Part shown: positions 8,942 to 27,001 of the stretch, one piece after another | Layout: every line of letters begins with the position of its first letter | Numbering within the stretch: position 1 is the first letter of the stretch | DNA from: Candidatus Saccharimonadota bacterium | GTDB lineage: Archaea > Nanobdellota > Nanobdellia > Pacearchaeales > GW2011-AR1 | Length of the DNA: 32,000 bases | Assembly (NCBI GenBank): GCA_041659445.1 | Contig: JBAZYG010000002.1 | Span: 60,001-92,000, forward strand | Reading direction: 5' to 3' | Made by a program: the position numbers and the translations under genes | The notes under the pieces: model-generated | Databases searched by the model: none | The model's input: only the letters and a program-made list of their open reading frames with translations | Told to the model about the DNA's origin: nothing

Positions 8942-9045
8942 AAATAAAAATCAAATGAATTTAGTGTGAATAAAGTTTACCTAAGTATAAACAATCTTTT
9001 TTTTATTATAACAATCTTTAAAAATAAACAATAATTCTTTGCAAT

Positions 9046-11057: not shown

Positions 11058-11891
11058 ATGAACAATGAAGAATTTCTTAAAAAATTAGAAGTTGAATTAA
11101 AAATTTCAAAAAATTCAGAATATACCTTGAGAAATTATATTTTTTCAAACGAAAAGTTTTTAGATTCTGTAAAAAAACCATTGGAATCTATTAATGAAGA
11201 CGATGTAAAAATATATCTTTCAGAAAAATTAAGTTCAAAATCTTCGACATCTATAATTCTTTTTCTTTCAGCAATAAAATATTCTTTTTCAAATATTTTA
11301 AAAAAAGATATCACATTAGGAATTAAAAGACCAAAAAAAGAAAAAATTCTTCCCGAAGTTTTGACAAAAGAAGAAGTAAAAACCTTAATTAATTCTATTG
11401 AAAATAAAAAATCTAAATTAATGATATCTTTAATGTATGCTACTGGAATGAGGGTTTCAGAATTAATTAATTTAAAAATTAATGATTTGGAATTTGAAGA
11501 AAAAATTTGTCATATACGGCAGGCAAAAGGAAAAAAAGATAGAATTGTTAATCTTCCAAATCAATTATTTGTTAAATTGGAAAAATATGCAGATAAACAG
11601 CGTTTATTAAAATCAGAATATTTCTTTTCTGGAAAAAATGGAAAAATGACTTCGAGAAATCTTCAGAAAATAGTTTCAAAAGCTGCAAAAAAAGCAGGAA
11701 TAAAAAAGAGTGTTCATTGTCATACATTAAGGCATAGTTTCGCAACGCATTTGTTAGAAAATGGTGTTGATATAAGATTAATTCAAACACTTCTCGGGCA
11801 CAGCAATTTAAACACAACTCAATTATATACTCATGTTTCAAAAGAGCAAATAAAAAATGTTAAAAGTCCAATTGACTCTTTAATGAAGTAA
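11058..11891 (+). CDS. xerA: tyrosine recombinase XerA-like
   Basis: 277 aa with an N-terminal SAM-like domain and a catalytic region: ATGMRVSEL, HTLRHSFATHLLENG, LLGHSNLNTTQLYTHV (R..HxxR..Y). Confidence 0.88.
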   Translation: MNNEEFLKKLEVELKISKNSEYTLRNYIFSNEKFLDSVKKPLESINEDDVKIYLSEKLSSKSSTSIILFLSAIKYSFSNILKKDITLGIKRPKKEKILPEVLTKEEVKTLINSIENKKSKLMISLMYATGMRVSELINLKINDLEFEEKICHIRQAKGKKDRIVNLPNQLFVKLEKYADKQRLLKSEYFFSGKNGKMTSRNLQKIVSKAAKKAGIKKSVHCHTLRHSFATHLLENGVDIRLIQTLLGHSNLNTTQLYTHVSKEQIKNVKSPIDSLMK

Positions 11892-11892
11892 A

Positions 11893-12330
11893 ATGGAAGA
11901 ATTAGAAAAACTTAAACAAGAGAATTTTGAATTAAAAAAAGAAATAGAAAAATTAAAAAATTTATTAAATAATCGAGGGAAAACTCAAAAATCAGGAATG
12001 ATAAAAAAAGCAAGTTCAGGAAAAGTTATGTCAAAACCTGCTTTTGGATATAAAATAGAATTCGGAAAATTAATAAAAGATAGTGAAAACGCAAAAAAAG
12101 TTCAAGAAATATTCTCTGAATTTTTAATTAATGATATAAGTTTGAATAAATTATCTAAGAAATACAATTTTTCAGTTAATGGTTTGAAAAAAATTTTAAC
12201 TAATTTTACATACATTGGAAAAATAAAATTTGATAATTCAGTTCATGAAGGAACCCATGAGCCAATAATTTCATCAACAGATTTTAATCATGTTCAAGAT
12301 AAATTAGAAAAAATGCTTAAGAAGAATTGA
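11893..12330 (+). CDS. stand-alone 'Recombinase' domain protein (large-serine-recombinase DNA-binding domain without the catalytic resolvase domain)
   Basis: 145 aa with an N-terminal coiled coil. It then shows FGYK...AKKVQEIFSEF...SLNKLSKK...LKKILTNFTYIGK...HEPIISSTDFNHVQ, the conserved pattern of the Recombinase domain. The start is 1 nt after the xerA stop. Confidence 0.65.
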   Translation: MEELEKLKQENFELKKEIEKLKNLLNNRGKTQKSGMIKKASSGKVMSKPAFGYKIEFGKLIKDSENAKKVQEIFSEFLINDISLNKLSKKYNFSVNGLKKILTNFTYIGKIKFDNSVHEGTHEPIISSTDFNHVQDKLEKMLKKN

Positions 12331-12334
12331 TTAT

Positions 12335-12652
12335 TTACTCTCTTATTCTAAAGCCAAATCCACTTGTTTGATCTGTGCAGGGAACTCTTAACAAACTGAG
12401 GGATCTAGAATGATACTTCTTTTCAACTTTTTTAAAATCCTTTTCTGATATTAATTTATAGTTCTGTAGTTCTTTCAAGGAAATTCTTTTATGCTTTTTT
12501 TCTAAAATATTTTCCACAGAGATAATGTCTTCTGTAGTTTTTGCTTCCAGAGATATTTTTTGAAATTGTATAATTTCCCCTTCATAATAATTGTGTTGAA
12601 AATATTTTCCTTTAAGAGATTGTTCAAGTAATTCATACATTGTTTCTTCCAT
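12335..12652 (-). CDS. hypothetical protein (variable cassette ORF 1)
   Basis: 105 aa. Its 5' leader and 3' flank are duplicated around the neighbouring, unrelated ORF at 12847-13152. Confidence 0.5.
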   Translation of the reverse strand: MEETMYELLEQSLKGKYFQHNYYEGEIIQFQKISLEAKTTEDIISVENILEKKHKRISLKELQNYKLISEKDFKKVEKKYHSRSLSLLRVPCTDQTSGFGFRIRE

Positions 12653-12833
12653 AAAAAATTCATTAATTAATTCCTTTTAAAGATTATTGTTCTAAAAAAT
12701 AACCATTTCAGATTAAATGTTATATATACTGAAAAATAATAAACTTGAGTTGCCCATGATTGTGAAATATCTATCATTTCTCTAATCTTTTTTCCAGAAA
12801 TTAAAACCCCAAGCCAATTAATAATAAAGAAAA
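12644..12833. repeat. about 190-bp copy of 13144-13384 (leader plus 3' part of the membrane-protein gene), with a 50-bp internal deletion
   Basis: Aligned by eye: near-identical apart from a few substitutions and loss of 13218-13267. Positions 12717-12833 are a non-functional fragment of the 13203-13493 gene. Confidence 0.85.
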
Positions 12834-12846
12834 TGCTTAAGAAGAA

Positions 12847-13152
12847 TTAAAAGTCTTGAATAAAATTTAAGTCTGGAAATCTTTTAGATAAATTCTCATG
12901 GAAAATTTTTGATTCTTCTTGTGTTGGTAATCTCTCATCTTCGTCGGGTATTAAATCCTGACAAATTTTTATTTCCAAATTTTTATTCTCTTTTGAGAGT
13001 TTATTTAATTCAAAATCTAGGTGAAAATATTTTTCGTTTAAATTATTTGAAAGAAATCCACCACCGCCTGTTGTAGGAGGTTTAAAAAAATAATAAAAGT
13101 ATCTTTTTTCTGAAATTGACGCAAATAGCCTTAATTTATAATCTTCTTCCAT
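12847..13152 (-). CDS. hypothetical protein (variable cassette ORF 2)
   Basis: 101 aa with the same MEE start context and leader as 12335-12652, but an unrelated body. Confidence 0.5.
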   Translation of the reverse strand: MEEDYKLRLFASISEKRYFYYFFKPPTTGGGGFLSNNLNEKYFHLDFELNKLSKENKNLEIKICQDLIPDEDERLPTQEESKIFHENLSKRFPDLNFIQDF

Positions 13153-13202
13153 AAATCTTTCATTAATTAATTCCTTTTAAAGATTGTTGTTCTAAAAAAT
13201 AA

Positions 13203-13493
13203 CTATTTTAGATTAAAGGCGTTGCTTTTCAAATCAGAAAATGGGAAAGGCCTATTGTTTGTTTTGAATGTTATATACACTGAAAAATAATAAACTTGAG
13301 TTGCCCATGATTGTGAAATATCTATCATTTCTCTAATCTTTTTTCCAGAAATTAAAACCCAAAGCCAATTAATAATAAAGAAAATTGCAACAAGATACAT
13401 CCAAACATAGAGAATTATTCCTGAAACAATTAAAACAACAATTCTCATTAATGCTTCTTTTCTTTCGAGTTCAACCTCTTTTTTTTCTTTCAT
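13203..13493 (-). CDS. small two-helix membrane protein
   Basis: I prefer the internal start MKEKKEVELERKEALMRIVVLIVSGIILYVWMYLVAIFFIINWLWVLISG, one nt after the rps9 stop. The track ORF (to 13592) would overlap rps9 out of frame. Confidence 0.55.
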   Translation of the reverse strand: MKEKKEVELERKEALMRIVVLIVSGIILYVWMYLVAIFFIINWLWVLISGKKIREMIDISQSWATQVYYFSVYITFKTNNRPFPFSDLKSNAFNLK

Positions 13494-13494
13494 T

Positions 13495-13905
13495 TTATCT
13501 ATAAGATGTTTGCCTCTTTGCTCTTGCTTTTGAATCTCCTGGTTTATAGGCTTCTTTTCTTCGAACATCTGCAACAAGAATATTTCTATCATAATCTAAA
13601 TATGTTTTTTCAAGCTCACGCGAATTTGAAAATTTTAAAATCCCTCTAGCTAAAGCTAATCTTGCAGCTTCTATTTGTCCTTTTTCTCCGCCACCATGAA
13701 CATTTATTTTTGCATTGAATTCTATTTTTCCTAAAATTTGTTCAGCGATTCTTATTGGTTCTGCAATCCTTAATCTGTTAAAAATATCAAATCCAAGATA
13801 ACTTTTATTATTGATTAAAACTTTTCCATTTCCTGGATAAATTGTTGCTTTTGCAACTGCAGTTTTTCTTTTTCCAGAACTATATACTTTATTTGTTTCT
13901 GTCAT
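13495..13905 (-). CDS. rps9: 30S ribosomal protein S9 (uS9)
   Basis: GKRKTAVAKA...VHGGGEKGQIEAARLALARGI...RRKEAYKPGDSKARAKRQTSYR. The start is taken at MTETNK, just after the L13 stop. Confidence 0.93.
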   Translation of the reverse strand: MTETNKVYSSGKRKTAVAKATIYPGNGKVLINNKSYLGFDIFNRLRIAEPIRIAEQILGKIEFNAKINVHGGGEKGQIEAARLALARGILKFSNSRELEKTYLDYDRNILVADVRRKEAYKPGDSKARAKRQTSYR

Positions 13906-15012: not shown

Positions 15013-15510
15013 ATGGAAAATAAAGGGTTTTTCAATAAAGAAATAGGGAATTTCACTTTTAAATCTCCAGAAATACCCAAAATAAGTGAAATACCTGAAA
15101 TTGCCCAAAATTCCATAAAAGACCCCCTTTTTTACGATTTAGGTAAAGAAAGAATAGAATCTCTTAAAAAAGCAATTTCAGAAATAAAAATTTTAATTAA
15201 AGAAAGAGAAAAGTTAAGTAAAGACACTTTTAACGAAGGTGAAAAACTTAAAACAGAAATAAATAATTTTATTCTTGAAAACGAAAATGCAAACATTGCA
15301 TTAAATTCTGTTTCTACAAATGAATTACTTAGAGAAAAAAACGAATTAAGGTCTAAAAAAATTACAATTTCTGAATCTCAATTAAAAGAAAAAATTGATT
15401 GCTGGAAAGACGTTGCAGTGCTTAAAAAAGAATTAAGAGAACTTGAAATAGAACTTTCAGAAAAAGAAAATAGGATAATTGCATTAAATAAAATTCTCGA
15501 ATCTAATTAA
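15013..15510 (+). CDS. coiled-coil protein, partner of the downstream ATPase
   Basis: 165 aa. The C-terminal two thirds are heptad-rich (ESLKKAISEIKILIKEREKL...LRELEIELSEKENRIIALNKILE). It ends 5 nt before the ATPase gene. Confidence 0.65.
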   Translation: MENKGFFNKEIGNFTFKSPEIPKISEIPEIAQNSIKDPLFYDLGKERIESLKKAISEIKILIKEREKLSKDTFNEGEKLKTEINNFILENENANIALNSVSTNELLREKNELRSKKITISESQLKEKIDCWKDVAVLKKELRELEIELSEKENRIIALNKILESN

Positions 15511-15515
15511 TAAAA

Positions 15516-17534
15516 ATGAAAAGACTTCTTAGTATAGAAGAGTTAAGCACAAAATTAAAACCTTTATTCGGAGAAAAAATTGATCAATTATATTTTAAAT
15601 ATTTAACTTCAAATTCTAACGAAGAAAAAATAGAAATTTTGCAATTATTGACGGCATTATATCAAAAAAATCTTTCAAATTTACTCGATACAAAAATTTT
15701 GTTAGAACCGCCTCCAAAAGAATTAGTTACAGGAGAATACACTCTTGGAAATGTAGTTTATAATGAAAAAGAACTATATCCCTTTAATTTAAGAGAGCAA
15801 GATTGGTCAAGACACATTTGTGTTACAGGTATGTCTGGTAGTGGAAAAACAAATTTAGCATTGAATATTCTTTCAGATTTTATAAAAAAATCAAAGCCAT
15901 TCTTAGTTTTTGATTGGAAAAAAAGTTTTCGACCGTTGGTAAATAAAGATCCTTCATTAATGATTTTTACAGTCGGAAACGAATCTGTAAATAATTTTTT
16001 CAAATTAAACATAAACCGACCACCAAAAGATGTTTCACCAAAAGAATGGATAAATGTTTTGTGTGATCTATTAACAGAAAGTTTTGCAGTTTCATTCGGA
16101 GTTCACAAAGTTTTATTAGAAACATTAGATGAAATTTTTGAAAAATGGGGAGTTTATTCTGGTTTTAATCATTATCCAAATTGGGAGCATGTTAAAAAAA
16201 TGCTTGAAATAAAAGCAAGAGAGGCAAAAAAAAGAGAATCTGCATGGTATGAAAGTGCTTTAAGAATTGCATCTGTTTTAACTTTTGGAAGTTTTGGAAA
16301 AGTTATAAACTACGACGGAAAAAAAAGTCTTTCAGTTGAAGATTTGTTTGATAAAAGAGTTATTCTTGAATTAAATTCTTTGGGAAATATTGAGAAAAAA
16401 TTCTTTTGTGAATATCTTTTAACTTATATTTACAAATTAAAAAAAGCAAATCAATTCAAAGATGAATTAAACTTTAATTATGCAATTTTAGTTGATGAAG
16501 CACACAATATTTTCTTGAAAAATAAAACAAATTTCTTATCTGAATCTGTTACAGACATGGTTTACAGAGAAATGAGGGAATATGGAATAAGTTTAATTTG
16601 TTTAGACCAGCACATTTCTAAAATAAGTGATACTGTTAAGGGAAATTCTGCTTGTCATATAGCATTTCAACAACAACTTCCTGAGGACATTTATGATATT
16701 AGTTCTTTAATGCAAATGTTTGACAGAAAAGAAATTTTTTCAAAAATTCCTGTTGGATATTCTATTGTGAAACTTGCTGAAAGATATAATTCCTCTTTTT
16801 TAATTAAAGTTCCGTTATTTGATTTTTCTGGTGCAGAAGTAGGTGATGAAAAAATAAAATCAAGAATGGATTTTAAATTACTTGAAAATGAAATTGAAGA
16901 ATCAGATAAAGAATTTAAAAAAGAAATAACTTTTCCTTCAATAAAAAATGCAATAAAACCCGGACTAACCTTGAAGAAATCAAAAAAAAGAATTATCTTA
17001 GATAAGGAAGATTTAGAAGTTCCTTTAGAAGTTCAAGATTTTAAGAGAAAAATTGAAAATATTAAAGAGGAATATGCTGGTTTAACTCCTGTTCAAAAAG
17101 AATTATTTTTATTTATTCAATCAAAATTAGATTCAGGACGTGAATTAAAAGATATTGAAAATTTGCTTGAGCAAGGGCTTTCAGAAAAACTTTATAGTTT
17201 TTCAGATGTATTAACTGCAATTAATTATGCAATGGAGCAAAGATTAAAACTTCCTTCAAAATCTTTAACTTTCCAAAATAAAAATAATTTAGAACTTGTT
17301 TCAAATCAATTAAAACATTCTTCTGAAAATTTACCTGACGATGAGAAAAAGTTTGTTGAATTTTTAAGAAAAAATCCAAACAATGAATTAAATACAACTT
17401 CAATATATTCTTCAATGGGTTTTTCAACAAGAAAAGGAAATGTTATTAAAAAAAGGTTAATTGAAAAAAATCTTATAAAAGTTCAAGAACAAAGGACAAC
17501 AAAAGGCTGGCAAAAATTCATAAGATTAGCTTAG
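15516..17534 (+). CDS. HerA/FtsK-superfamily P-loop ATPase (DUF87-like) fused to a C-terminal winged-helix domain
   Basis: 672 aa with Walker A ICVTGMSGSGKTNLALNIL, Walker B YAILVDEAHNIF, then LICLDQH. The C-terminus FVEFLRKNPNNELNTTSIYSSMGFSTRKGNVIKKRLIEKNLIKVQE is wHTH-like. Confidence 0.8.
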   Translation: MKRLLSIEELSTKLKPLFGEKIDQLYFKYLTSNSNEEKIEILQLLTALYQKNLSNLLDTKILLEPPPKELVTGEYTLGNVVYNEKELYPFNLREQDWSRHICVTGMSGSGKTNLALNILSDFIKKSKPFLVFDWKKSFRPLVNKDPSLMIFTVGNESVNNFFKLNINRPPKDVSPKEWINVLCDLLTESFAVSFGVHKVLLETLDEIFEKWGVYSGFNHYPNWEHVKKMLEIKAREAKKRESAWYESALRIASVLTFGSFGKVINYDGKKSLSVEDLFDKRVILELNSLGNIEKKFFCEYLLTYIYKLKKANQFKDELNFNYAILVDEAHNIFLKNKTNFLSESVTDMVYREMREYGISLICLDQHISKISDTVKGNSACHIAFQQQLPEDIYDISSLMQMFDRKEIFSKIPVGYSIVKLAERYNSSFLIKVPLFDFSGAEVGDEKIKSRMDFKLLENEIEESDKEFKKEITFPSIKNAIKPGLTLKKSKKRIILDKEDLEVPLEVQDFKRKIENIKEEYAGLTPVQKELFLFIQSKLDSGRELKDIENLLEQGLSEKLYSFSDVLTAINYAMEQRLKLPSKSLTFQNKNNLELVSNQLKHSSENLPDDEKKFVEFLRKNPNNELNTTSIYSSMGFSTRKGNVIKKRLIEKNLIKVQEQRTTKGWQKFIRLA

Positions 17535-17995: not shown

Positions 17996-18036
17996 CACAA
18001 AATAATTTTTAATATTAACAATTTAAAACTTTAATC

Positions 18037-18234
18037 ATGGAAACAGCAACTTTTTTTCTTTTAATCGGAGCGATAGTTTTCATTTTTTTAGGAGCAATTT
18101 TACTTGTCGCTTCTTCAAAAAAAGAAACCTACCATTTTCCCTGGCTGTCTGTAGCATGCCTAATCGTGGCTTTTGCATTTTGTTTAGCCGCCCTCATCGT
18201 GCAAAACTCGGCCGGCGTTCATCCAGCGAACTAA
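18037..18234 (+). CDS. small two-TM membrane protein
   Basis: 65 aa with two hydrophobic helices (FFLLIGAIVFIFLGAILLVA; SVACLIVAFAFCLAALIV). Confidence 0.6.
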   Translation: METATFFLLIGAIVFIFLGAILLVASSKKETYHFPWLSVACLIVAFAFCLAALIVQNSAGVHPAN

Positions 18235-18265
18235 CTTGCAGGAATTTTAACATCTTTTTAAAACA

Positions 18266-18421
18266 ATGGAACAAATAACTTTAATCATACTCGGAGCAGG
18301 ACTTTCCTGTTTAGGAGTATTAAATTTATTTGATTACAAACATAGAGTAAACAGATCTTCCATTCTTGGAATGGGATGGGGTTTAGCTATGTTTATTTTA
18401 GGGATTTGTATCCTTAAATAA
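18266..18421 (+). CDS. small two-TM membrane protein (51 aa)
   Basis: Hand-translated MEQITLIILGAGLSCLGVLNLFDYKHRVNRSSILGMGWGLAMFILGICILK. It has the same TTTAAAACA-ATGGAA start context as other island genes and is below the track cutoff. Confidence 0.45.
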   Translation: MEQITLIILGAGLSCLGVLNLFDYKHRVNRSSILGMGWGLAMFILGICILK

Positions 18422-18673
18422 TCAAATAGAAATCTGCTAATTTTGGATTAGCCGAGTTGATGCATATCTTGGGAACAGAAGCATCAAATTCTTTTTTATC
18501 TTTTCTTGCCTGCACTTCGTCGATGGATAAGAAGTTCGATTCTTCTTGCAGGCACAATTCAGTGTTAAAAAATTCAAAAACAATTTCGACAAAGCGGAAG
18601 GCGGTTTTGTCAAATTAATTAAAAACAAACCCTTAAAAAAAAGTGCCATAAGGAGGCGCTAGCCGAATGTATC

Positions 18674-19300
18674 ATGAAAAATTTAAATGGAAAAAGTTTT
18701 GATGAACCTGAGGAAGAAAGACTGGTAAATCCCAAAGTTTATCAGGCAAAACCCGAACGGGTTTTTACATATCCCGAAGGGACTTTTGGGAGGTTGTGTG
18801 AAGAACAACACTGCAATCCTGATATTCTAATCTCTTCAGAGACAAAAATATCTCTATTTTCAAAAGTAGGTAATCCGGGGTATCGAATGTATACCTACAA
18901 AATTGAAAACAATGAAACAGACGCGTTGAGCGTCTACGAACCATGGGCGAGAATTGAGCTCAAAAAAGATTTTTTCCTTGAAAGGAAAAATCATGCCAAG
19001 GAATGTGGCCGGATTGCAAAAGAGCTTGGACTTCCGTTTGAATTAATTCTGGCTGTCGGCATTGAGCCAGAAAAACGCCAGGCTCTTCTCCAGTTGAAAG
19101 AAAAAGCCGAATGGTTCAGGGAACTGATCCACGAGCTGAAGGAATGCGGAATTAATAAGAGGAAAATGTCTATTCTCGATCTCATCGGGAGAGAGACATA
19201 CGACTCTTTGGATGTCGAAGGTATGGGGCAAAAAAATTCCTCGACAATTGCCCAATTTCTCACAAGGGGAATAACCATCGAGGGTTATTCTAAAAAATAA
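18674..19300 (+). CDS. hypothetical soluble protein
   Basis: 208 aa with island-type composition and no signal peptide; no motif recognised. Confidence 0.65.
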   Translation: MKNLNGKSFDEPEEERLVNPKVYQAKPERVFTYPEGTFGRLCEEQHCNPDILISSETKISLFSKVGNPGYRMYTYKIENNETDALSVYEPWARIELKKDFFLERKNHAKECGRIAKELGLPFELILAVGIEPEKRQALLQLKEKAEWFRELIHELKECGINKRKMSILDLIGRETYDSLDVEGMGQKNSSTIAQFLTRGITIEGYSKK

Positions 19301-19387
19301 TAATTAACTCGGCAGAAATAAGGCACTGCAATGAGACAAAATATTAACTATTAATTGGATAGGGACATGCTATCCATTTTATTTTAA

Positions 19388-19459
19388 TTCATTATAGCTC
19401 AGTTGGTAGAGCATCTGATTTTATTCAGAAGGTCATAGGTTCGAATCCTATTAATGGAA
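19388..19459 (+). tRNA. tRNA-like gene with bacterial-type D-arm and an aberrant 6-nt anticodon loop (Lys-UUU-like, or pseudo-tRNA)
   Basis: TTCATTA-TA-GCTC-AGTTGGTA-GAGC-A-TCTGA-TTTTAT-TCAGA-AGGTC-ATAGG-TTCGAAT-CCTAT-TAATGGA-A. All four stems pair, but the total is 72 nt because the anticodon loop is one nt short. Confidence 0.6.
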
Positions 19460-19460
19460 C

Positions 19461-19910
19461 AATGTTCTCTTTTGAACATTTTAGCTTCATCCCTTGAAGC
19501 TTGCTCATACATGAGCATTTCGTTTCTCAATTTCTTTGAGAGACAAACATTTTTCTTTTTTTAATCTGATTATCATGTTTTTTTAATCAGGTTTCATTCG
19601 CTGAAATTTCCTTCAGCAAACATTTTCCAAAAACTCTTTAGATTTCAGAGCCAAAACAAAATCAATTTGTTATTTTATTTATTTTCAGTTATTATTTATT
19701 TTTAATTATTTTTCAAATTAATTACTTTATTAGTATTTAGTTAAGTTCTTTTTATTTCAATTATTTTCTTATCATTATTTTATTTTTCTTTTCGTCATTT
19801 CGTTCTGAAGTGACAAACATTTTTCTTAGTTTTCTTTTTAGTTGCTCTTTTTCATTAATTTATTTTGAGCAACTTTCTTCGGCTAATTCCAGCCAAACAT
19901 TTTCCCTTTT
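19461..19910 (+). repeat. array of short hairpins, four to five followed by a conserved AAACATTTT(T)C tail
   Basis: Stems TCTCAA/TTGAGA (tail at 19545), GCTGAA/TTCAGC (tail at 19618), GTCATTTC/GAAGTGAC (tail at 19814) and GGCT/AGCC (tail at 19895), plus AATGTTC/GAACATT at 19461-19480. More hairpins at 19483-19501, 19502-19517, 19566-19590 and 19842-19873. Confidence 0.8.
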
Positions 19911-19966
19911 AATTTTTCTTCTGAATTTTTTTTAAACAAATATTAACAATTTAATTTCAAAACGTC

Positions 19967-20806
19967 ATGAAAAATTTAATTTCAAAAAATTGTTCATCGA
20001 TTCTGCCGTTCTTTCTGATTGCATTAATTGCTATCTTTGCATTTTGCTGTGCAAGACCAGTGAATGCTCAATCCACGTGGGATTGTGAAAGGTATTCAGA
20101 TCCCTTTTCATTCAACGTCAAACAAGTCAATAGTTCAATTTGGATTTTGAGTTATTCGATTAAGAATGATTCAATTATGACATTCAACCATGCCGGCGTG
20201 ACCTCTTTGGAGTTGACTTCAAATGATATAATTCTTGATTCCATTGAGGTTGTCTTTGTGTCAAAATTTCCTTTTTCAAGTACACAAATTCAAGCCAGTC
20301 TTAAAAAAGTTTATTTTGAAAATTCCCCACAATTAGTGAGGCAAGATGTTATTTTCAAAACTTTTCCGAAGTGGCCAGACAAGAAAATAGAAACGTTTTA
20401 CATTTACTGCAAAAAAGAAGGAAATAAAGTAACTTTCTATGATGAATTGGTATTTACTAAAACCAAATCAAATTGGCTTTGGCCGACAGCGTGCGTTATA
20501 GTTTTAATTGGGTTTTTTTTAATTGATGCAATTCAAAAGATTGGGGAAAGAAGAAATTATCTCAAAAATGAAAGCAGGGTAGAAAAGTTTTTTTCAGGAT
20601 TTTTTGCAAATACTTTTTGCAGTTTTGGAGAAGTAATTTTCATCCTTATATTAATTATATTATTTCTTTTTAAGATAATGTCCCTAGTAGAAGATTATTC
20701 TTTAGATAAAATTGGAATAATCTTTTATCTGTCTCTGATTTTCTTGTTCTTTCTCGGAAAATTTATTCTTTACAAAATCTTTTTCCGAGGAATTAAAAAA
20801 TACTAA
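19967..20806 (+). CDS. secreted-domain protein with a C-terminal multi-TM region
   Basis: 279 aa with a signal peptide ending VNA|Q, a soluble domain of about 140 aa, then 3-4 hydrophobic helices. Confidence 0.7.
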   Translation: MKNLISKNCSSILPFFLIALIAIFAFCCARPVNAQSTWDCERYSDPFSFNVKQVNSSIWILSYSIKNDSIMTFNHAGVTSLELTSNDIILDSIEVVFVSKFPFSSTQIQASLKKVYFENSPQLVRQDVIFKTFPKWPDKKIETFYIYCKKEGNKVTFYDELVFTKTKSNWLWPTACVIVLIGFFLIDAIQKIGERRNYLKNESRVEKFFSGFFANTFCSFGEVIFILILIILFLFKIMSLVEDYSLDKIGIIFYLSLIFLFFLGKFILYKIFFRGIKKY

Positions 20807-20813
20807 CTTCTTT

Positions 20814-20890
20814 TAAGGGCAAGTTAAAGAAAAGGATTTTCTACGTTTTGCCTTTTTAGATTAGAGATAGCAATCTAATACTTGCCCTTA
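20814..20890 (+). ncRNA. 77-nt Y-shaped structured element (11-bp closing stem plus two internal hairpins), function unknown; may act as a terminator
   Basis: TAAGGGCAAGT (20814-20824) pairs with ACTTGCCCTTA (20880-20890). Inner hairpins are AAAAGG..CCTTTT and TAGATT..AATCTA. It is followed by TTTTC. Confidence 0.4.
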
Positions 20891-20942
20891 TTTTCAAAAC
20901 TTTTTTTCAAAATTAATTCACCAATTCAAAATTTTAAACGCC

Positions 20943-21632
20943 ATGAAAAATTTAATTTCTTTACTTAAAAAAGTAGGAGTCTTTAAAGCAATCGGAATTT
21001 CTGCTTTAATTGGCTTTATTTTGGTAATAATTTTTCTTGTGCTATTACCAAAAAATTCAAATTCACAAGAAATTTCTTCTCCTGAAAAATGGAAGATTAA
21101 TTCCATAAATTTTGTCGCTGGCGAAACACCCTTGACAAAAGGAATTACTTTAAGCCCAGTTTTTTCAAAAGGTAAATCAACAATAATGATAGATCTAAAC
21201 CAGGAATTAGGAGAACTTATGTTTTTTTATTCTCCTAAAAAATGGTGTTCCATCGGGCCATCAGTAGGGTTCTTCAAGAATACATCTTGGGTAGGACCAA
21301 TTGCTTCATTAAACATTTTTAATGGACATGTTACAACTCTTAACTGGGTGGGATGGAGTTTTGGAAACCCTGAAGCAATCGGAGGAGGAACTACAAATTC
21401 CAACGTTGATTTCTTGTTTTCCTTTCACCAGGTTTCTGTCAATTACTTCGGTGTAGAAGGTTATTATATTCTGCAACACTACCAAAAAAATTTTCCCGGG
21501 CACATTGTAGGGGTTAAGTATACTTTTGCCCTCGGAGATAATTTTTCCCTTTTCGGAGGTTATGCTTATATGTTCCGAGCAGATAAATCCCTTTGGTCCG
21601 CAGGTTTCATTTTGTTATTTCCAGAAAAATAA
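20943..21632 (+). CDS. secreted beta-rich protein, putative beta-barrel (paralog of 21636-22316)
   Basis: 229 aa with a signal/anchor ending SNS|Q and alternating hydrophobic strands. It shares the YSPKKWxSIGPSVG block with the next gene (YSPKEWITFGLSAG). Confidence 0.65.
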   Translation: MKNLISLLKKVGVFKAIGISALIGFILVIIFLVLLPKNSNSQEISSPEKWKINSINFVAGETPLTKGITLSPVFSKGKSTIMIDLNQELGELMFFYSPKKWCSIGPSVGFFKNTSWVGPIASLNIFNGHVTTLNWVGWSFGNPEAIGGGTTNSNVDFLFSFHQVSVNYFGVEGYYILQHYQKNFPGHIVGVKYTFALGDNFSLFGGYAYMFRADKSLWSAGFILLFPEK

Positions 21633-21635
21633 ACC

Positions 21636-22316
21636 ATGAAAGCAAATTTCAAATTAAAAGTTCCCGGTCCATTCACAATTGTAGAATGGATTTTCATCAT
21701 GATGATTGTATTGGCAATCGGAACTTGTTCCAGAACCAATGCTCAAACTTCTCAAAATTTCTTCAAGATAAATGTTCATGTTCAAGTTGTTTCAGACGAG
21801 CAATCTGAAACAAGTAAAAAGTTCAGAACATTTTACCAAGAGGAATTTTATTTTAATCATAAATTTTCTTCGAATTTAGCTTTCACAAGTTTTGCAACAG
21901 TTAGAAATGATCGGGGTGAAATTTATTCTGGATTAGAGTACTCACCAAAAGAATGGATAACTTTTGGTTTGAGTGCTGGTCTAGATGTTGCAAAAGAAGC
22001 TGGTTCATCGTCAGCAACTTTGAGAACTGCAACATCTGTTTCCCTCAAGCCAGTAGAACAATTTGAATTCAAAGGAATTTTTGAATATAGCTCTGAGGAT
22101 TACTGGTTTTTGATTGAGCCAAAATACAATGGAAAGAAATTTTCATTGAGTTTGATTGCCCGTCGATATCATGGTGTCGGGTTTTCATTTTATTGGCCGA
22201 TTGCCAAGGGTAATCTGACTTTATGGTACTATGCGGGATATCTTCAAGGAAAATTCCTCGGAGGTGATGATAACCCACGAGCCTCTTCAGCCTTAGGGTT
22301 GAAAGTTAATTTTTAA
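21636..22316 (+). CDS. outer-membrane-type beta-barrel-like protein
   Basis: 226 aa with a signal peptide ending TNA|Q and amphipathic beta-strand periodicity. The C-terminus is ALGLKVNF, with terminal Phe and alternating hydrophobics (bacterial OMP beta-signal). Confidence 0.65.
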   Translation: MKANFKLKVPGPFTIVEWIFIMMIVLAIGTCSRTNAQTSQNFFKINVHVQVVSDEQSETSKKFRTFYQEEFYFNHKFSSNLAFTSFATVRNDRGEIYSGLEYSPKEWITFGLSAGLDVAKEAGSSSATLRTATSVSLKPVEQFEFKGIFEYSSEDYWFLIEPKYNGKKFSLSLIARRYHGVGFSFYWPIAKGNLTLWYYAGYLQGKFLGGDDNPRASSALGLKVNF

Positions 22317-22347
22317 TTTACTTAATACTAATTTAATTTTTAAAACA

Positions 22348-22842
22348 ATGGAAAATTTTCTTGAAAACAAATCAGTTGCAAAAATCTGCTTGATTCTTGC
22401 AATTATCATCATGGTGATTCTGTCTCTCTCGCCAATAGATGCAAAGTCTCAAGTGATTGTTAATGACGCTGATTCAAGTGTTGTCCTTGACATTCAGAGC
22501 ACCTCTGGCGGTATTCTCATTTCCCGGATGACAGAAGCTCAACGTGACAGCATCTCAGAACCAGCGAATGGTTTGCTGATTTATCAAACAACCGTTCCAA
22601 TGGGTTTTTATTTTTGGGACGGAGTCCAGTGGAACAGGCTCGTAAGTGAAAATGCAGAAGGTATCATACAATATGGTGAGGCAGAATTTTCTGGAGAGCC
22701 TTCCCAGGAATTATTTGAAAGTGTTTTTGGTATCAGACAATTTCATTTTCATTTCACTCTGCTAAGCACAAATCAGAATAAAGTCTTCACTGGCGCCTAC
22801 ATTACTGGGCATGGGTTTTTCTATGAAAAACTCAAGCAATAA
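22348..22842 (+). CDS. secreted protein with an STSGGILISRMT..QRD.I..P..GLLIYQT....W motif
   Basis: 164 aa with a signal peptide ending AKS|Q. From memory, the motif resembles one common in Bacteroidota secreted hypothetical proteins; this was not verified. Confidence 0.6.
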   Translation: MENFLENKSVAKICLILAIIIMVILSLSPIDAKSQVIVNDADSSVVLDIQSTSGGILISRMTEAQRDSISEPANGLLIYQTTVPMGFYFWDGVQWNRLVSENAEGIIQYGEAEFSGEPSQELFESVFGIRQFHFHFTLLSTNQNKVFTGAYITGHGFFYEKLKQ

Positions 22843-22946
22843 CAACTACAACCCTTAATTGGGATTCTGCATTTCTAAATTTCTTTGGCATTATTAAAGA
22901 AATTAAATTCTCAAAATGTTTATTAATCATCAAATTTCAAAATGTC

Positions 22947-23093
22947 ATGGCAAAAAAGAATTTTGCAACCAGAATCATCTTAGAAAATGATGGAGTTTCT
23001 AAAGATGAAGAAATTCCTCTCAAAGCCAAAATGAAAAATATACATAAAACCTACCATCCACTAAAAGGGATGAAAGGAAAAAAAGCAGAATAA
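22947..23093 (+). CDS. small basic protein (48 aa)
   Basis: Hand-translated MAKKNFATRIILENDGVSKDEEIPLKAKMKNIHKTYHPLKGMKGKKAE. It is preceded by the island leader AAATTTCAAAATGTC-ATG and followed by a 10-bp-stem hairpin. Confidence 0.45.
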   Translation: MAKKNFATRIILENDGVSKDEEIPLKAKMKNIHKTYHPLKGMKGKKAE

Positions 23094-23236
23094 AACCCAT
23101 CAGCAACGCAAAAGGCAGGAACTTTTAATCTAAATTAACTAATGGTTTTTGATGAATCTCTATCTTCCCCTGCCTTTTTAATTTGAAAACAATTTATGTC
23201 AAAATATTAATTCAAAACTTTTAATTTCAAAACGTC

Positions 23237-23746
23237 ATGAAAACAAAAGAGAACAATTTTCTGTATTGGGGAGTTGTGATTGTTTTTTTAGTAACGATCA
23301 TATCCCTGGTCTTAATGTTTGTTTCTATAATTTCAAAAGCAAATAAAAAAGATTTAGAAACAAAATCTTCCAACACTTCAAACGTTGTTTTTGTGGAGAA
23401 TTCTGATTCTTCAATAATAATAAACGCAGAAGTTATCATCTCAGAATTCAACGGAATTTCTGATTCCGTTGATTACCAAACCAGCGAGGATTTTATAGAT
23501 ATTTCCTTAGCAATAGAACAATATTATCCTTGCTCAGATACTACTCTCTGTGACAGCCTGAGACAAAATTTTATTGACGAGCTTAGAAAAATTTCAGATG
23601 TTAATGTCCTTGAAATTTTTCTCGAGACAATCAATAGGGTTTTCATCAACACAGACTTTTCAAAAACCGATGACATTAAATCATTAATTACTCAGAGAGT
23701 TAATGATTTATACGCCCTTGAATCATATCAAGAACTCAAAAAATAA
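23237..23746 (+). CDS. N-terminally anchored extracytoplasmic protein
   Basis: 169 aa with one TM (LYWGVVIVFLVTIISLVLMFVSII), and the leader TTAATTTCAAAACGTC-ATG, nearly identical to that of 19967. Confidence 0.65.
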   Translation: MKTKENNFLYWGVVIVFLVTIISLVLMFVSIISKANKKDLETKSSNTSNVVFVENSDSSIIINAEVIISEFNGISDSVDYQTSEDFIDISLAIEQYYPCSDTTLCDSLRQNFIDELRKISDVNVLEIFLETINRVFINTDFSKTDDIKSLITQRVNDLYALESYQELKK

Positions 23747-23785
23747 TTTTCAAAACTTTTTTCAAAACAATTTAAATTAAATGTC

Positions 23786-24178
23786 ATGGAAAAATTTGGT
23801 ATTTATTTAGTATGGATGCTGATACTTCTTGTATTTGCGTTCTTAAATCGCACCATCCTGTATTATGGAGCAATCTGTCCAGCCGTCAGTGGAAGACCTG
23901 TTGCTGACTTAAGACCTTGGAGAATATTCTCTTGGGTTTTCGGAGGAATTTCCTTTATTGTTTACAATTTTCTTTTGTTAGTTCCAATCGACAGCGAGTT
24001 TAAAGATTTCTTCAAACCAGTGTGCCTGATTTTTGCTGGAACCTGTGTTCTGGCATTAATTCTTTTTGCCCTGCTAAGTTCTGATGCAATTTTGATGACT
24101 ATCCGTCGGAGATTTAATCTCGTTGGAATTGCGTTAGGAATTGTCTTGTGCCTAACGCTTTCATTCTTCCTGTTATAA
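23786..24178 (+). CDS. four-TM integral membrane protein
   Basis: 130 aa with four hydrophobic segments. Confidence 0.65.
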   Translation: MEKFGIYLVWMLILLVFAFLNRTILYYGAICPAVSGRPVADLRPWRIFSWVFGGISFIVYNFLLLVPIDSEFKDFFKPVCLIFAGTCVLALILFALLSSDAILMTIRRRFNLVGIALGIVLCLTLSFFLL

Positions 24179-24184
24179 CATTCA

Positions 24185-24224
24185 TTGCATTATGTATCTC
24201 TTGAAGATTATAATGCATTTCTTT
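24185..24224 (+). terminator. hairpin plus T-run (intrinsic-terminator-like)
   Basis: TGCATTAT (24185-24192) pairs with ATAATGCA (24209-24216), followed by TTTCTTTG. Confidence 0.55.
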
Positions 24225-24300
24225 GATTTCAATTACTCAATTTAATTTGAGACAAAATATTTTTCACAAATTTCTATTTATTAATTCAAAAATTTTTACC

Positions 24301-25152
24301 ATGAAAAAAATCGTTTTTTTATTCGGAATTTTCTTCCTTTTTTTAGGAAGTATCTTTTCCCAAGACATCATCTATAAAAGAGATGGGTCCAGAATTCAAT
24401 CAGTGGTTTTGAAAATCACTGAGACGTCGATAGAATATCAATATTTCAATCAACCCGACGGGCCTGTGCGAGTACTCTCTCTAAAAGATGTGTATATGGT
24501 CAGGTACAACGACGGAACAGAAGAACAATTCACATCTGAAGTTCCTGAAGTTCAACCTGAACCTGAGGCTGTTTCCACCACATCTATTATGCCGACGACA
24601 ACAATCAGTCAACCTGTTTCAACAGAACCAATTCAGCCACCAGTTACAACCAAACAAAAATCATCTGGAAAATTCTCCCTCAATGCTGGAGGGTTTCTCC
24701 ATATGTATTACAACGAGGAAATGTCCTCGACATTTGGCACCATGCCTTTGTTCGGCTTGGGTCTTGGCGTGGACATGGATAATATATTTTTCACGCTGAG
24801 ATATAATACTGGCTCTGTGAAGTATGATGAGGATAACTGGACATTAAAGCATTCCCAGTTGGACTTGCTGTTCGATTTAAAGTGGTATAAATCACAGGGA
24901 AGCAAAGCCCAAGTATATTCTGGAATTGGGCTTTCTCTTAATACATTGAAAGATGAAGGTCCAGACAACGAGAAAGAAAAAGGAACAGGTGCAGGGGTTT
25001 TGCTCGAGCTTGGCTTTGATATCTTACTTGCAAATAATTTATATTTGTTTGTCACGGCAACATCTGTGATAGGGAATGTAAATATTTACGAAGAGAAAGT
25101 TAACATCAGCGGAGAACGACTCGGAGTCGGGCTCAAGGTTAACTTTGATTAA
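24301..25152 (+). CDS. outer-membrane-type beta-barrel protein with an N-terminal small domain and a Pro/Thr-rich linker
   Basis: Start taken at MKKIVFLFGIFFLFLGSIFS|QD. It has an N-domain IIYKRDGSRIQSVVLKITETSIEYQYFNQPDGPVRVLSLKDVYMVRYNDGTEEQF, a PEPEAVSTTSIMPTTT linker, about 8 amphipathic strands, and ends GVGLKVNFD. Confidence 0.7.
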   Translation: MKKIVFLFGIFFLFLGSIFSQDIIYKRDGSRIQSVVLKITETSIEYQYFNQPDGPVRVLSLKDVYMVRYNDGTEEQFTSEVPEVQPEPEAVSTTSIMPTTTISQPVSTEPIQPPVTTKQKSSGKFSLNAGGFLHMYYNEEMSSTFGTMPLFGLGLGVDMDNIFFTLRYNTGSVKYDEDNWTLKHSQLDLLFDLKWYKSQGSKAQVYSGIGLSLNTLKDEGPDNEKEKGTGAGVLLELGFDILLANNLYLFVTATSVIGNVNIYEEKVNISGERLGVGLKVNFD

Positions 25153-25269
25153 CTTTTAAATTTTCAAAAAATCCTTAATCGAAATTCTAAAATTAGTTTG
25201 AAGAAAAGAGCATAACTGTGAGTGTATGCTTTTAAATTTTCAAAATGTCTAATAACAAATTTTTTAACA

Positions 25270-26055
25270 ATGGAAACAAAAACAAAAAAAATCACATGGT
25301 GGGACGTAGCATTTGTCGCCATCGTGGTGACTTTGGTGGGGTTTGTACTTTGGGTTTGTCTCACACCGCCGCCCAACAAAATAACCGACGAGAGAGCCCA
25401 ACAAACCCAAGATTCACTCTCAAACCAGTATCGATTTGAGTGTAACTTAATTTCTTTCAACTCAGAACCAGTTCCGGCCTTTTTTGAATGGTTGGAATTG
25501 CAAGGAGAGGGATACACTCCAGTAGGTAATAATCCGGTTCTGGTACCCATACGTTCAGGACAGGAAATGATTTATTCGTATGAAGGTAAAATGTATAAAG
25601 GCATTTTACCAAACACAACCTACTTCATGTGGGAGCCAGCTTCAGGTATGGAATTCAAATGTCTCTCCAGAAATGGAGCAATTATATCCATAACTCCTTA
25701 TGAAACAGGTGAGCCAGTCCAGTATTTTATCCGTCGATACAATGAATTCTGGAGTTTCGAGGAATTAAAAATTCGTAATTATCGTTATTCATTGAACATC
25801 ACCGCAATTTATCCTTGGGGAGAAATTCTCATCGATAACTACGAAGATCTGTTGATGAATTCTTCTGTAAAAAGGTTTCGCTCCTGGGGACCTGCTTATG
25901 AAGTTCAGGTCGGGCAAGCTGAGTTAAATGGGTGGGAAGATTTTTTCCTCGTCAGTCAGGATGGGAAAGCATGGCTTACCCGCGAACAAGAGCAACGACG
26001 ACGTGAAAGTCAGTTCATACATAACGTCGGACCTGGAGGTTTTATACTTCCATAA
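25270..26055 (+). CDS. N-terminally anchored extracytoplasmic protein
   Basis: Start taken at METKTKKITWWDVAFVAIVVTLVGFVLWVCL (single TM); the remaining roughly 230 aa are soluble with no recognised motif. Confidence 0.65.
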   Translation: METKTKKITWWDVAFVAIVVTLVGFVLWVCLTPPPNKITDERAQQTQDSLSNQYRFECNLISFNSEPVPAFFEWLELQGEGYTPVGNNPVLVPIRSGQEMIYSYEGKMYKGILPNTTYFMWEPASGMEFKCLSRNGAIISITPYETGEPVQYFIRRYNEFWSFEELKIRNYRYSLNITAIYPWGEILIDNYEDLLMNSSVKRFRSWGPAYEVQVGQAELNGWEDFFLVSQDGKAWLTREQEQRRRESQFIHNVGPGGFILP

Positions 26056-26246
26056 TTCCCCCAATTATTAAACCCAAAATGTGAAGTTGACAAGAATGTG
26101 ACTTGATGTGCACATTTTTTCTTTTGAACAAATTATTAATTTAAAAAAGAAAGGAGGAAAAAATAATTAAGAGTGTTGGTATGAACATAACCTTATTTTT
26201 AAGGTGTATGTAAAATTATAATTATTCACCTAAATTTTAAATCATC

Positions 26247-26813
26247 ATGAAAAAGATTCTTTTTATTTTCTTTGGACTACTCTTTGCGAGTAGTCTTTTT
26301 GCAATCGAACCGACAGTACCTGCTACCAGCACCGGCGAGAATTCCCCGACGATTTTCACTGCTGAGCAGAAAGCTGAAGCCATCAACGCTTTCGTGACCA
26401 GTGGAAGCATGGAAATGGCTATTCCCGGATTGCCTGATGCACCGCCGCCGGTGAGGTATGAGAACATCTTAGGTTTTGAAGTAACCGCATGTAACTCCAT
26501 GCACATTGCGTATGGGGTGACCGGGGGTAATGAAGAACCTGCTTTTTGGGTTTACCCATGGGGAGGAACCGTTAGAGTAGAAAAAACAGTTTGGCCCCAA
26601 GCAGGACAGCAAGTTTGGGTAAAAGTATTATCCTGTTCAAGCCCACAGCAAGGATATTGCAATCTACATTTAGACCGAAGGGTTTGGTATCCAGATCAAG
26701 GTCCTATGGGCGAGCCCTTATTGTGCTTGTATGGATGGATATGGTGTTATACCGCGGGAAGTATCCTACCTCAAACAGGATACACCGAGGCCGGTTATTG
26801 TGTGACTGAATAG
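26247..26813 (+). CDS. secreted Cys/Trp-rich protein
   Basis: 188 aa with signal peptide MKKILFIFFGLLFASSLFA|IE. It is the G+C-richest gene in the window and its C-terminal half contains 7 Cys. Confidence 0.65.
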   Translation: MKKILFIFFGLLFASSLFAIEPTVPATSTGENSPTIFTAEQKAEAINAFVTSGSMEMAIPGLPDAPPPVRYENILGFEVTACNSMHIAYGVTGGNEEPAFWVYPWGGTVRVEKTVWPQAGQQVWVKVLSCSSPQQGYCNLHLDRRVWYPDQGPMGEPLLCLYGWIWCYTAGSILPQTGYTEAGYCVTE

Positions 26814-26828
26814 CCTATCCTGCTCTTC

Positions 26829-26870
26829 AAGGACTTTATTTCTCTCGAGGATTAAAGTCCTTTTCTTTTG
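26829..26870 (+). terminator. hairpin plus T-run (intrinsic-terminator-like)
   Basis: AAGGACTTTA (26829-26838) pairs with TAAAGTCCTT (26853-26862), followed by TTCTTTTG. Confidence 0.6.
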
Positions 26871-26900
26871 ATTTTAATTTCCTTTAAGGAATCAAAATAT

Positions 26901-27001
26901 AAGGCGTTGGTCAGAAGCAATTCCTGAAGTAATTGCACAAGTTGCGAAAAATCAAATTTTTGTGTGAGAATTCATCCAACCAAGGGAAAATCCAACGCCT
27001 T
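26901..27001 (+). ncRNA. about 100-nt element closed by a 10-bp stem (possible structured RNA), function unknown
   Basis: AAGGCGTTGG (26901-26910) pairs with CCAACGCCTT (26992-27001). It has an internal GCAATT..AATTGC hairpin and lies at the right edge of the G+C-rich island. Confidence 0.3.

Follow-up and report, generated by a model that had tools for sequence, protein, structure and literature searches.

Introduction

Repeated flanks around small unrelated genes, as present at positions 12310-13384 of a 32-kb stretch of DNA (hereafter the window: 32,000 nucleotides of contig JBAZYG010000002.1) from a Candidatus Pacearchaeota metagenome-assembled genome (MAG), bring to mind several described systems. 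Integrative elements exploiting Xer (IMEX), for example CTXphi and the gonococcal genetic island, make use of Xer recombination at dif; a dif-like site is composed of two inverted arms of ~11 bp around a 6-8-bp spacer and is found duplicated at the IMEX ends. In the contact-dependent inhibition (CDI) and Rhs loci, orphan toxin/immunity modules are found downstream of the cdiA or rhs genes. Integrons occur in DPANN archaea (Ghaly et al. 2022, PMC9668308), and integron integrases carry an IntI-specific additional domain around patch III (PMC9668308).

In the locus under study two small open reading frames (ORFs), ORF105 and ORF101, occupy the slot between the gene for ribosomal protein S9 and a convergent gene for a 'Recombinase'-domain protein (Rec), downstream of xerA. 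The locus resembles an integron array in having a tyrosine recombinase near small, unrelated ORFs of the same orientation with repeated boundaries, and in that the cargo differs between genomes. However, no IntI-specific domain is present in XerA, attC-like folding is not seen at the boundaries, one of which falls within a gene, and xerA is separated from the slot genes by the Rec gene, with which these are convergent; moreover, integron cassettes are mostly promoterless and depend on a common Pc near attI, whereas each unit of the locus has its own promoter. With IMEX it shares a nearby Xer recombinase and short direct repeats flanking the modules, but a dif-like palindrome is missing, the repeats correspond to the end of a coding sequence and the modules have no element functions. 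As in the orphan modules of cdiA and rhs, a small ORF of another kind comes after a 3' piece of the upstream gene, as would result from recombination on a shared stretch; in our case, however, the small ORF alone is variable and not the C-terminus of a large gene, no toxin or immunity signature is present, and the genes are not obligately paired in relatives.

The locus also has much in common with microhomology-mediated tandem segmental duplications and unequal crossing-over at flexible genomic hotspots, in islets that lie between conserved core genes: the units are in direct tandem, their junction has 5 nt of microhomology, a partial gene seems to be decaying, and genes are present, absent or replaced between lineages at a fixed position, one of them (DUF4389) having been transferred horizontally. 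It differs from them in that the replaced segment is almost exactly one coding sequence (codon 4 to stop), in having its two independent junctions no farther than 16-20 nt from the Rec gene end, and in the very small size of the array, with units of ~0.5 kb. We consider it probable that the locus is a genuine chromosomal structure of the Candidatus Pacearchaeota population, produced at a gene-turnover hotspot by microhomology-mediated duplication together with recombination on short flanks in common.

Architecture of the duplicated locus

The features of the locus, in the order of their coordinates, are:
12310-12328, plus strand: tail copy 1, where the Rec gene ends (last codons KMLKKN)
12335-12652, minus strand: ORF105, a member of a small uncharacterised family, with an ORF101-type leader and the MEE start
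12644-12717, minus strand: leader copy 1, with the start ATGGAAGAA, a TATA/B recognition element (BRE)-like AATCTTTAAAA at 12675-12685 and a Rec-tail relic at 12690-12702
12703-12829, minus strand: dead 3' fragment of the DUF4389 gene, ~55 codons, without a start codon and with a 51-bp deletion
12830-12848, plus strand: tail copy 2, a relic of the Rec gene 3' end, not coding here, in which the ancestral TTAA stop overlap is retained
12847-13152, minus strand: ORF101, of the family native to the slot, with the invariant C-terminus FPDLNFIQDF
13144-13217, minus strand: leader copy 2, with the start codon, a promoter-like AATCTTTAAAA at 13175-13185, a Rec-tail relic at 13190-13202 and the DUF4389 stop TAG at 13203-13205
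13203-13493, minus strand: intact DUF4389 membrane protein gene, 96 amino acids (Pfam DUF4389, 43.3 bits), directly after S9
13495-13905, minus strand: ribosomal protein S9, last in the conserved L18e-L13-S9 operon, whose end bounds the slot

The two units follow each other head to tail (unit 1, 12310-12829; unit 2, 12830-13384), and each is composed of a 3' part of DUF4389, a promoter with the MEE start, a small ORF and the final 19 nt of the Rec gene. The repeats had been located in an earlier reading of the letters alone (the sequence-only reading), and sequence comparison confirmed all of them at the same positions. Thus, 12310-12328 and 12830-12848 are identical (19/19; 22/24 for the extended stretches 12305-12328 and 12825-12848), the leader pair (12644-12717 and 13144-13217) displays 92% identity over 74 nt and the DUF4389 pair (12713-12834 and 13264-13385) 98% identity over 122 nt, while the central 295-315 bp of the units, which are the ORF bodies, are unrelated. 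When further copies were searched for within the 32-kb window, as that reading had suggested, the 19-mer and a 25-nt leader core were found at two sites each and no more; the expectation from shuffled sequences with 3 mismatches allowed was 0.28 matches for the 19-mer and 0.00 for the leader core.

The junction of the duplication lies at 12829/12830, and the sole overlap of both parent sequences is the AAAAT microhomology at 12830-12834. A direct repeat with a single new junction of low homology, as observed here, is the mark of a tandem segmental duplication. Homology throughout both units, expected of a plain tandem duplication, was not found, and as the ORF bodies are unrelated between the units a second event is needed, either a replacement or the joining of alleles.

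Copy 1 of the membrane-protein gene was correctly recognized from the letters as a dead fragment, having no start codon, a deletion and a lost stop, the TAG being changed to TGG; in addition it carries 2 substitutions, with one W-to-G change. Two details needed correction: the segment missing from copy 1 (13218-13268) measures 51 bp, that is 17 codons in frame, and not 50 bp, and the intact gene is a DUF4389 gene of 96 amino acids at 13203-13493. The duplicated DUF4389 piece appears to be decaying.

The flanks themselves are of ordinary kinds. The Rec tail reads AAATTAGAAAAAATGCTTAAGAAGAATTGA, and the TTAA preserved in its second copy represents the overlapping stop codons of two convergent genes, an overlap also present in L003, the contig of the closest relative (see below). 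In the leader, AATCTTTAAAA sits ~30 nt upstream of the ATG, with one copy per unit; it is also found upstream of the genes at 9013 and 14954 in the window, and it precedes the slot genes of other species and P0005, a homolog of ORF105, in the unrelated contig L016. Since it stands before so many other genes, AATCTTTAAAA is best seen as a generic TATA/BRE-type promoter of the clade, and the leader as a generic predicted promoter plus the start ATGGAAGAA, with which both ORF105 and ORF101 begin. The unit 1 leader is closer to L003 than the unit 2 leader. The 13 nt beyond the DUF4389 stop (TTATTTTTTAGAA, which in leader copy 1 is the relic at 12690-12702 on the minus strand) resemble an L023-type Rec tail, and the next junction, of AGAA with CAAYAATC, is common to the window and the L003 spacer.

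Two unrelated proteins between the same flanks

An ORF of at least 100 codons appeared in just 0.2% of shuffles of the 1.1-kb stretch (25% GC), so that ORF105 and ORF101 are not random. That the two are unrelated had been proposed from their sequences, with detectable homology named as the observation that would speak for a simple diverged duplication, and the proposal was borne out: similarity between them was not detected by BLASTP, by a six-frame hmmsearch that included the antisense strand (testing cassette inversion) or by shuffled Smith-Waterman alignment of the DNA, and the profile-profile comparison of both families with hhalign (3, then 5+3 sequences) gave a probability of 1.8%. By these comparisons ORF105 and ORF101 belong to different protein families.

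The ORF101 family has three known members, ORF101, P0003 and P0004. Both relatives, the only two found among 5.8 billion proteins, are encoded in contig L003 (paralogs A and B), and the three proteins are 39-51% identical to one another, as seen in a fast-evolving family. The AlphaFold2 (AF2) model of ORF101 has a predicted local distance difference test (pLDDT) value of 83.6 and a beta-beta-beta-alpha-beta-alpha-beta topology that fits an RNase H-like core, and its fold matches were weak and RNase H-like alone (best Foldseek E 4.3e-3, template modelling score 0.34-0.46); no acidic residue within strand 1 is conserved across the family. Conservation of the 3' nucleotides of ORF101 was considered as a DNA element and dropped, being explained by amino-acid conservation together with extreme AT codon bias. 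We also observed that, beyond the TAA stop of ORF101, the DUF4389 fragment follows in the same reading frame (12690-12849, minus strand); read-through would add ~55 membrane-protein residues, and this is probably a coincidence (1 in 3 chance).

ORF105 was an apparent orphan in a word-indexed search, and its family was revealed by a full HMMER scan. Phmmer homologs are P0005 (48% identity over the full length, E 1.5e-18), P0006 (40%), P0007 (31%) and P0008 (41%), and the length of ORF105 agrees with them at both ends. Their contexts (L016-L021) are other genomic settings, none of them (0) in the S9-Rec slot. P0005 (L016 56-1383, Logan SRR29699978) lies 90 nt upstream of a gene for a 307-amino-acid Fic-domain protein on the same strand; this neighbour is a possible functional lead, by which ORF105 may be, for example, a small partner or regulator of Fic. 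By eye, the [ST]xxxE[GN] Fic-inhibition motif is absent from ORF105, and its single-sequence AF2 model (pLDDT 54) is too poor for use.

Neither ORF105 nor ORF101, nor their relatives, matched anything at or above the curated cut-offs of Pfam, PADLOC, PHROGs and NCBIfam, a result that includes toxin, antitoxin and anti-phage defence families; no PDB sequence was matched by either family, and fold searches gave nothing significant.

The same position in related lineages

Syntenic loci were retrieved with the Rec-domain protein as anchor, which gave nine related lineages with a common gene order: XerA, the Rec-domain gene, the convergent slot, S9, L13 and L18e. Among them the slot is either empty or occupied by one of at least five other gene contents:
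L003: two ORF101 paralogs (A and B)
L005, L006, L010 and L014: a gene for a lipoprotein-like product of 97-98 amino acids
L007, L008, L013 and L015: a gene for a lipoprotein-like product of 128 amino acids
L009: a gene for a 64-amino-acid membrane protein
L011: a gene for a 326-amino-acid membrane protein
L022, L023 and L025: DUF4389 only, abutting the Rec stop, the slot being otherwise empty

As its contents vary among relatives, the position is a gene-turnover hotspot, flanked on one side by the convergent Rec-domain gene, downstream of xerA, and on the other by the end of the L18e-L13-S9 operon. This agrees with the small hypervariable locus envisaged in the sequence-only reading. The accompanying idea of a slot with alternative cargo is documented between lineages and not within the population: single-unit alleles of the same population were not found, the 15-billion-protein collection has no other strain with a Rec identity of 90% or more, and a scan of GTDB for close strains returned two more distant species only.

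The closest relative, L003 (identity 85% for Rec and 83% for S9), has the order S9, promoter, A, a 16-nt Rec-tail relic, promoter, B and Rec, each paralog having its own promoter copy; ORF101 is of the family native to the slot. By eye, convincing tail relics were not seen upstream of the promoters in the single-gene slots of L005, L007, L009 and L010.

DUF4389 has a history of its own. Its product is 87.5% identical in amino acids to that of L022 (1586-1876), whereas the neighbouring L18e, L13 and S9 of the window and L022 are 58-68% identical and Rec 69-76%. The difference between DUF4389 and the ribosomal proteins points to a recent horizontal exchange of DUF4389 with a lineage whose slot is otherwise empty.

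As a separate observation, an extra gene for a 126-amino-acid multi-pass membrane protein lies between xerA and the Rec-domain gene in L005 (3633-4013), L006 and L014, so that a second position in the neighbourhood is also variable.

Origin of the tandem units

The structure can be accounted for by two events. Microhomology-mediated recombination, illegitimate or unequal, would either have made a second copy of the ORF101 unit or brought two alleles of the locus together, and the Rec-proximal ORF body would have been replaced by a gene of the ORF105 family through recombination on short shared flanks. The body of ORF105 (codon 4 to stop) is placed exactly between a promoter with MEE of the ORF101 type and the Rec tail, and the Rec stop is changed from TAA to TGA exactly at the start of the replacement; selection may have preserved both an in-frame promoter fusion and a closed reading frame of Rec. 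The flanks differ by ~4%, which is far too little for a divergence in place of the ORF bodies. The outcome would be a pair of small cytoplasmic proteins without relation to each other, both genes being preceded by a copy of one strong, generic predicted promoter. Resemblance of TTATTTTTTAGAA to a Rec tail and the spacer junction common with L003 are in plausible agreement with recombination on a short tail relic. Dedicated recombination machinery is not needed, and the locus is a case of ordinary genome plasticity: it adds one more instance to a known class of events, in which duplication of a segment is combined with replacement of a gene at a flexible hotspot.

Several points weigh against this explanation. 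The physical linkage of the two units is deduced from assemblies and not seen in reads; the NCBI, JGI and ENA assemblies are perhaps not independent, as the samples behind them may be identical or related, and Logan contig L001, which breaks off within the repeat, cannot settle the matter. An ORF105 donor with the same flanks was not found. The tail-relic homologies are short and AT-rich, so that recombination on the relic is plausible and not demonstrated. The events may have been either duplication then replacement or the joining of two alleles. Finally, the positions of the two independent junctions, 16 and 20 nt into the Rec gene, could hint at a preferred break or recombination site and not at random illegitimate events.

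Alternative explanations

The window comes from a MAG, and near-identical flank repeats of 74-122 nt can confuse assemblers, hence the proposal that two single-unit strain alleles, one with ORF105 and the other with ORF101, were concatenated; the end of L001 inside the repeat, with ORF101 and DUF4389 not recorded from Logan, would be in line with it. However, the join of the DUF4389 interior to the Rec tail has AAAAT alone in common, and these 5 nt are far below any assembler k, too few for a de Bruijn assembler to make the join out of two single-unit alleles, so that reads spanning the junction must exist. The same structure was given by the ENA MEGAHIT contig k141_943055, which differs from the window at 1 base of 12,306 (position 11354, away from the locus) and whose k=141 exceeds the longest repeat (122 nt). 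In the MAG, NCBI proteins MFA5953700-703 are consecutively Rec, ORF105, ORF101 and DUF4389. A chimera would display a shared k-mer at the junction and be absent from other assemblies, and neither was observed. Copy 1 has its own decay marks (the 51-bp deletion, the lost stop and single-nucleotide polymorphisms), and L003 indicates that two-gene arrays with tail relics are real in the clade. The concatenation advanced by the sequence-only reading is for us very unlikely; an assembly artefact is unlikely in general, and the tandem structure is probably genuine.

A second explanation would have modules of promoter, ORF and tail inserted and excised at the Rec-gene tail by XerA and/or the Rec-domain protein, in an integron-like or Xer-exploiting manner. 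The genes concerned are:
11058-11891, plus strand: XerA tyrosine recombinase, 277 amino acids (Pfam Phage_integrase, 163 bits), a conserved core gene
11893-12330, plus strand: stand-alone 'Recombinase' (PF07508) domain protein, 145 amino acids (Pfam, 38.3 bits)

Several features invite this explanation. The slot lies near XerA and the Rec-domain gene in every relative and has unrelated families as its content, the modules are bounded by Rec-tail relics, two independent junctions are placed 16 and 20 nt into the Rec gene, ORF105 is positioned almost exactly from start to stop, and integrons do exist in DPANN archaea (PMC9668308). The proteins, on the other hand, do not fit. XerA passes the cut-off of the NCBIfam archaeal XerA model (recomb_XerA_Arch, NF040815; 253.3 bits, cut-off 220) and fails that of the integron integrase TIGR02249 (211 bits, cut-off 265), the match being in two stretches that leave model positions ~184-251, the IntI-specific region, unmatched. 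Pfam and PHROG searches detected no catalytic resolvase domain in the Rec-domain protein, which has a coiled-coil N-terminus, also matches PHROG 95 (integrase middle region) and is convergent with the slot genes; of the 'recombinase pair' previously described, XerA is the archaeal recombinase of chromosome resolution and its partner a stand-alone PF07508 domain protein.

The boundaries are equally unlike recombination sites. Single-strand folding of the attC type, evaluated on both strands of the window and L003 spacers, gave z values of -1.19 to +1.14 versus shuffles, and inverted repeats suited to attC were not found at the spacers. A dif-like 11-6-11 palindrome was absent from the boundaries, as were short-spacer inverted repeats at the tail copies, the sole palindrome of the 19-bp repeat being CTTAAG. 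The left end of the recent junction is inside the DUF4389 coding sequence and not at a repeated site, the conservation of the tail is explained by its coding for KILKKN and the leader is a generic promoter, and the single-gene slots have no clear relics; nor are the units promoterless in the integron style, each having its own AATCTTTAAAA copy. We regard site-specific exchange of this kind as highly improbable. A capture platform, in which the Rec-gene end is the preferred site where XerA and/or the Rec-domain protein take up and shuffle self-promoted mini-cassettes, would be a minimal DPANN analogue of the integron; it is hinted at by the junctions at 16/20 nt, by the tail relics behind the modules and by at least six unrelated cargos in one slot of closely related genomes, and little credence can be given to it. 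If true, a housekeeping Xer recombinase and a coding-sequence tail would replace attC in gene capture.

All relatives have xerA and the Rec-domain gene as core genes in synteny (Rec identity 69-85%), and the nearness of the two to the slot appears incidental; the flanks are ordinary, no structured or palindromic recombination site is present, and no link between the cassette-like locus and the recombinases was demonstrated. Across Pacearchaeota/Woesearchaeota-like genomes a stand-alone PF07508 protein of 142-148 amino acids, with a coiled-coil N-terminus and no catalytic resolvase domain, is encoded directly downstream of xerA. The Rec-domain protein may perhaps be an accessory factor of XerA.

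A third explanation takes DUF4389 and a small gene as one unit in the manner of orphan modules, in which recombination between fragment and gene would delete ORF101 and express ORF105 with an altered DUF4389 C-terminus. The layout of a full gene, a small ORF, a 3' fragment of the same gene and a different small ORF, together with the in-frame nature of the 51-bp deletion, recalls such switching. Nevertheless, ORF105 has its own predicted promoter copy and so is not silent, the fragment has no stop codon and carries the W-to-G change, and toxin, immunity or defence matches are missing; as DUF4389 is alone in L022, L023 and L025 and the ORF101 paralogs of L003 are without DUF4389, the two are not an obligate pair. 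Switching of this type is hardly to be expected.

That ORF105 is a fast-evolving ORF101 paralog, diverged beyond recognition after a simple tandem duplication, is scarcely credible: the speed of the ORF101 family (39-51% identity against 83-85% for its neighbours), the MEE and leader common to both ORFs and a weak collinear hmmsearch alignment (2.1 bits) with an LxGKYF-like motif are offset by flanks that differ by ~4% around ORF bodies unalignable at the DNA level, by the full-length identity of ORF105 with P0005 in a different context near a Fic gene, by the profile-profile probability of 1.8% and by the lack of the invariant FPDLNFIQDF C-terminus in ORF105, and a simple diverged duplication is already largely refuted.

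Other features of the window

Beyond the ribosomal operon, 15013-17534 encodes a 165-amino-acid coiled-coil protein followed by a 672-amino-acid HerA/DUF87-type ATPase, a pair kept at this place in all syntenic loci. A region of ~9 kb (18000-27000) has a GC content of 31-40%, versus ~25% elsewhere, and starts near a tRNA at 19388-19460 (Rfam, 64.6 bits; its anticodon was not named by ARAGORN). Nine of its ten plus-strand ORFs are without a Pfam match, and the ORF at 24223-25152 has a match to an outer-membrane beta-barrel family (PF13505, 29.7 bits), which is odd for an archaeon. The region looks like a foreign island or an integrated element. The known RNAs of the window, according to Rfam, are two tRNAs only.

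Biological meaning

The locus offers a small-scale record of how accessory genes may be renewed in reduced DPANN genomes, one slot beside a ribosomal operon having been filled, emptied, duplicated and re-filled by means of a generic promoter and the last codons of a neighbour. No new mechanism or system is called for, unless the preference for the Rec-tail site proves to be enzymatic, and two uncharacterised families of small proteins are provided with a defined genomic setting.

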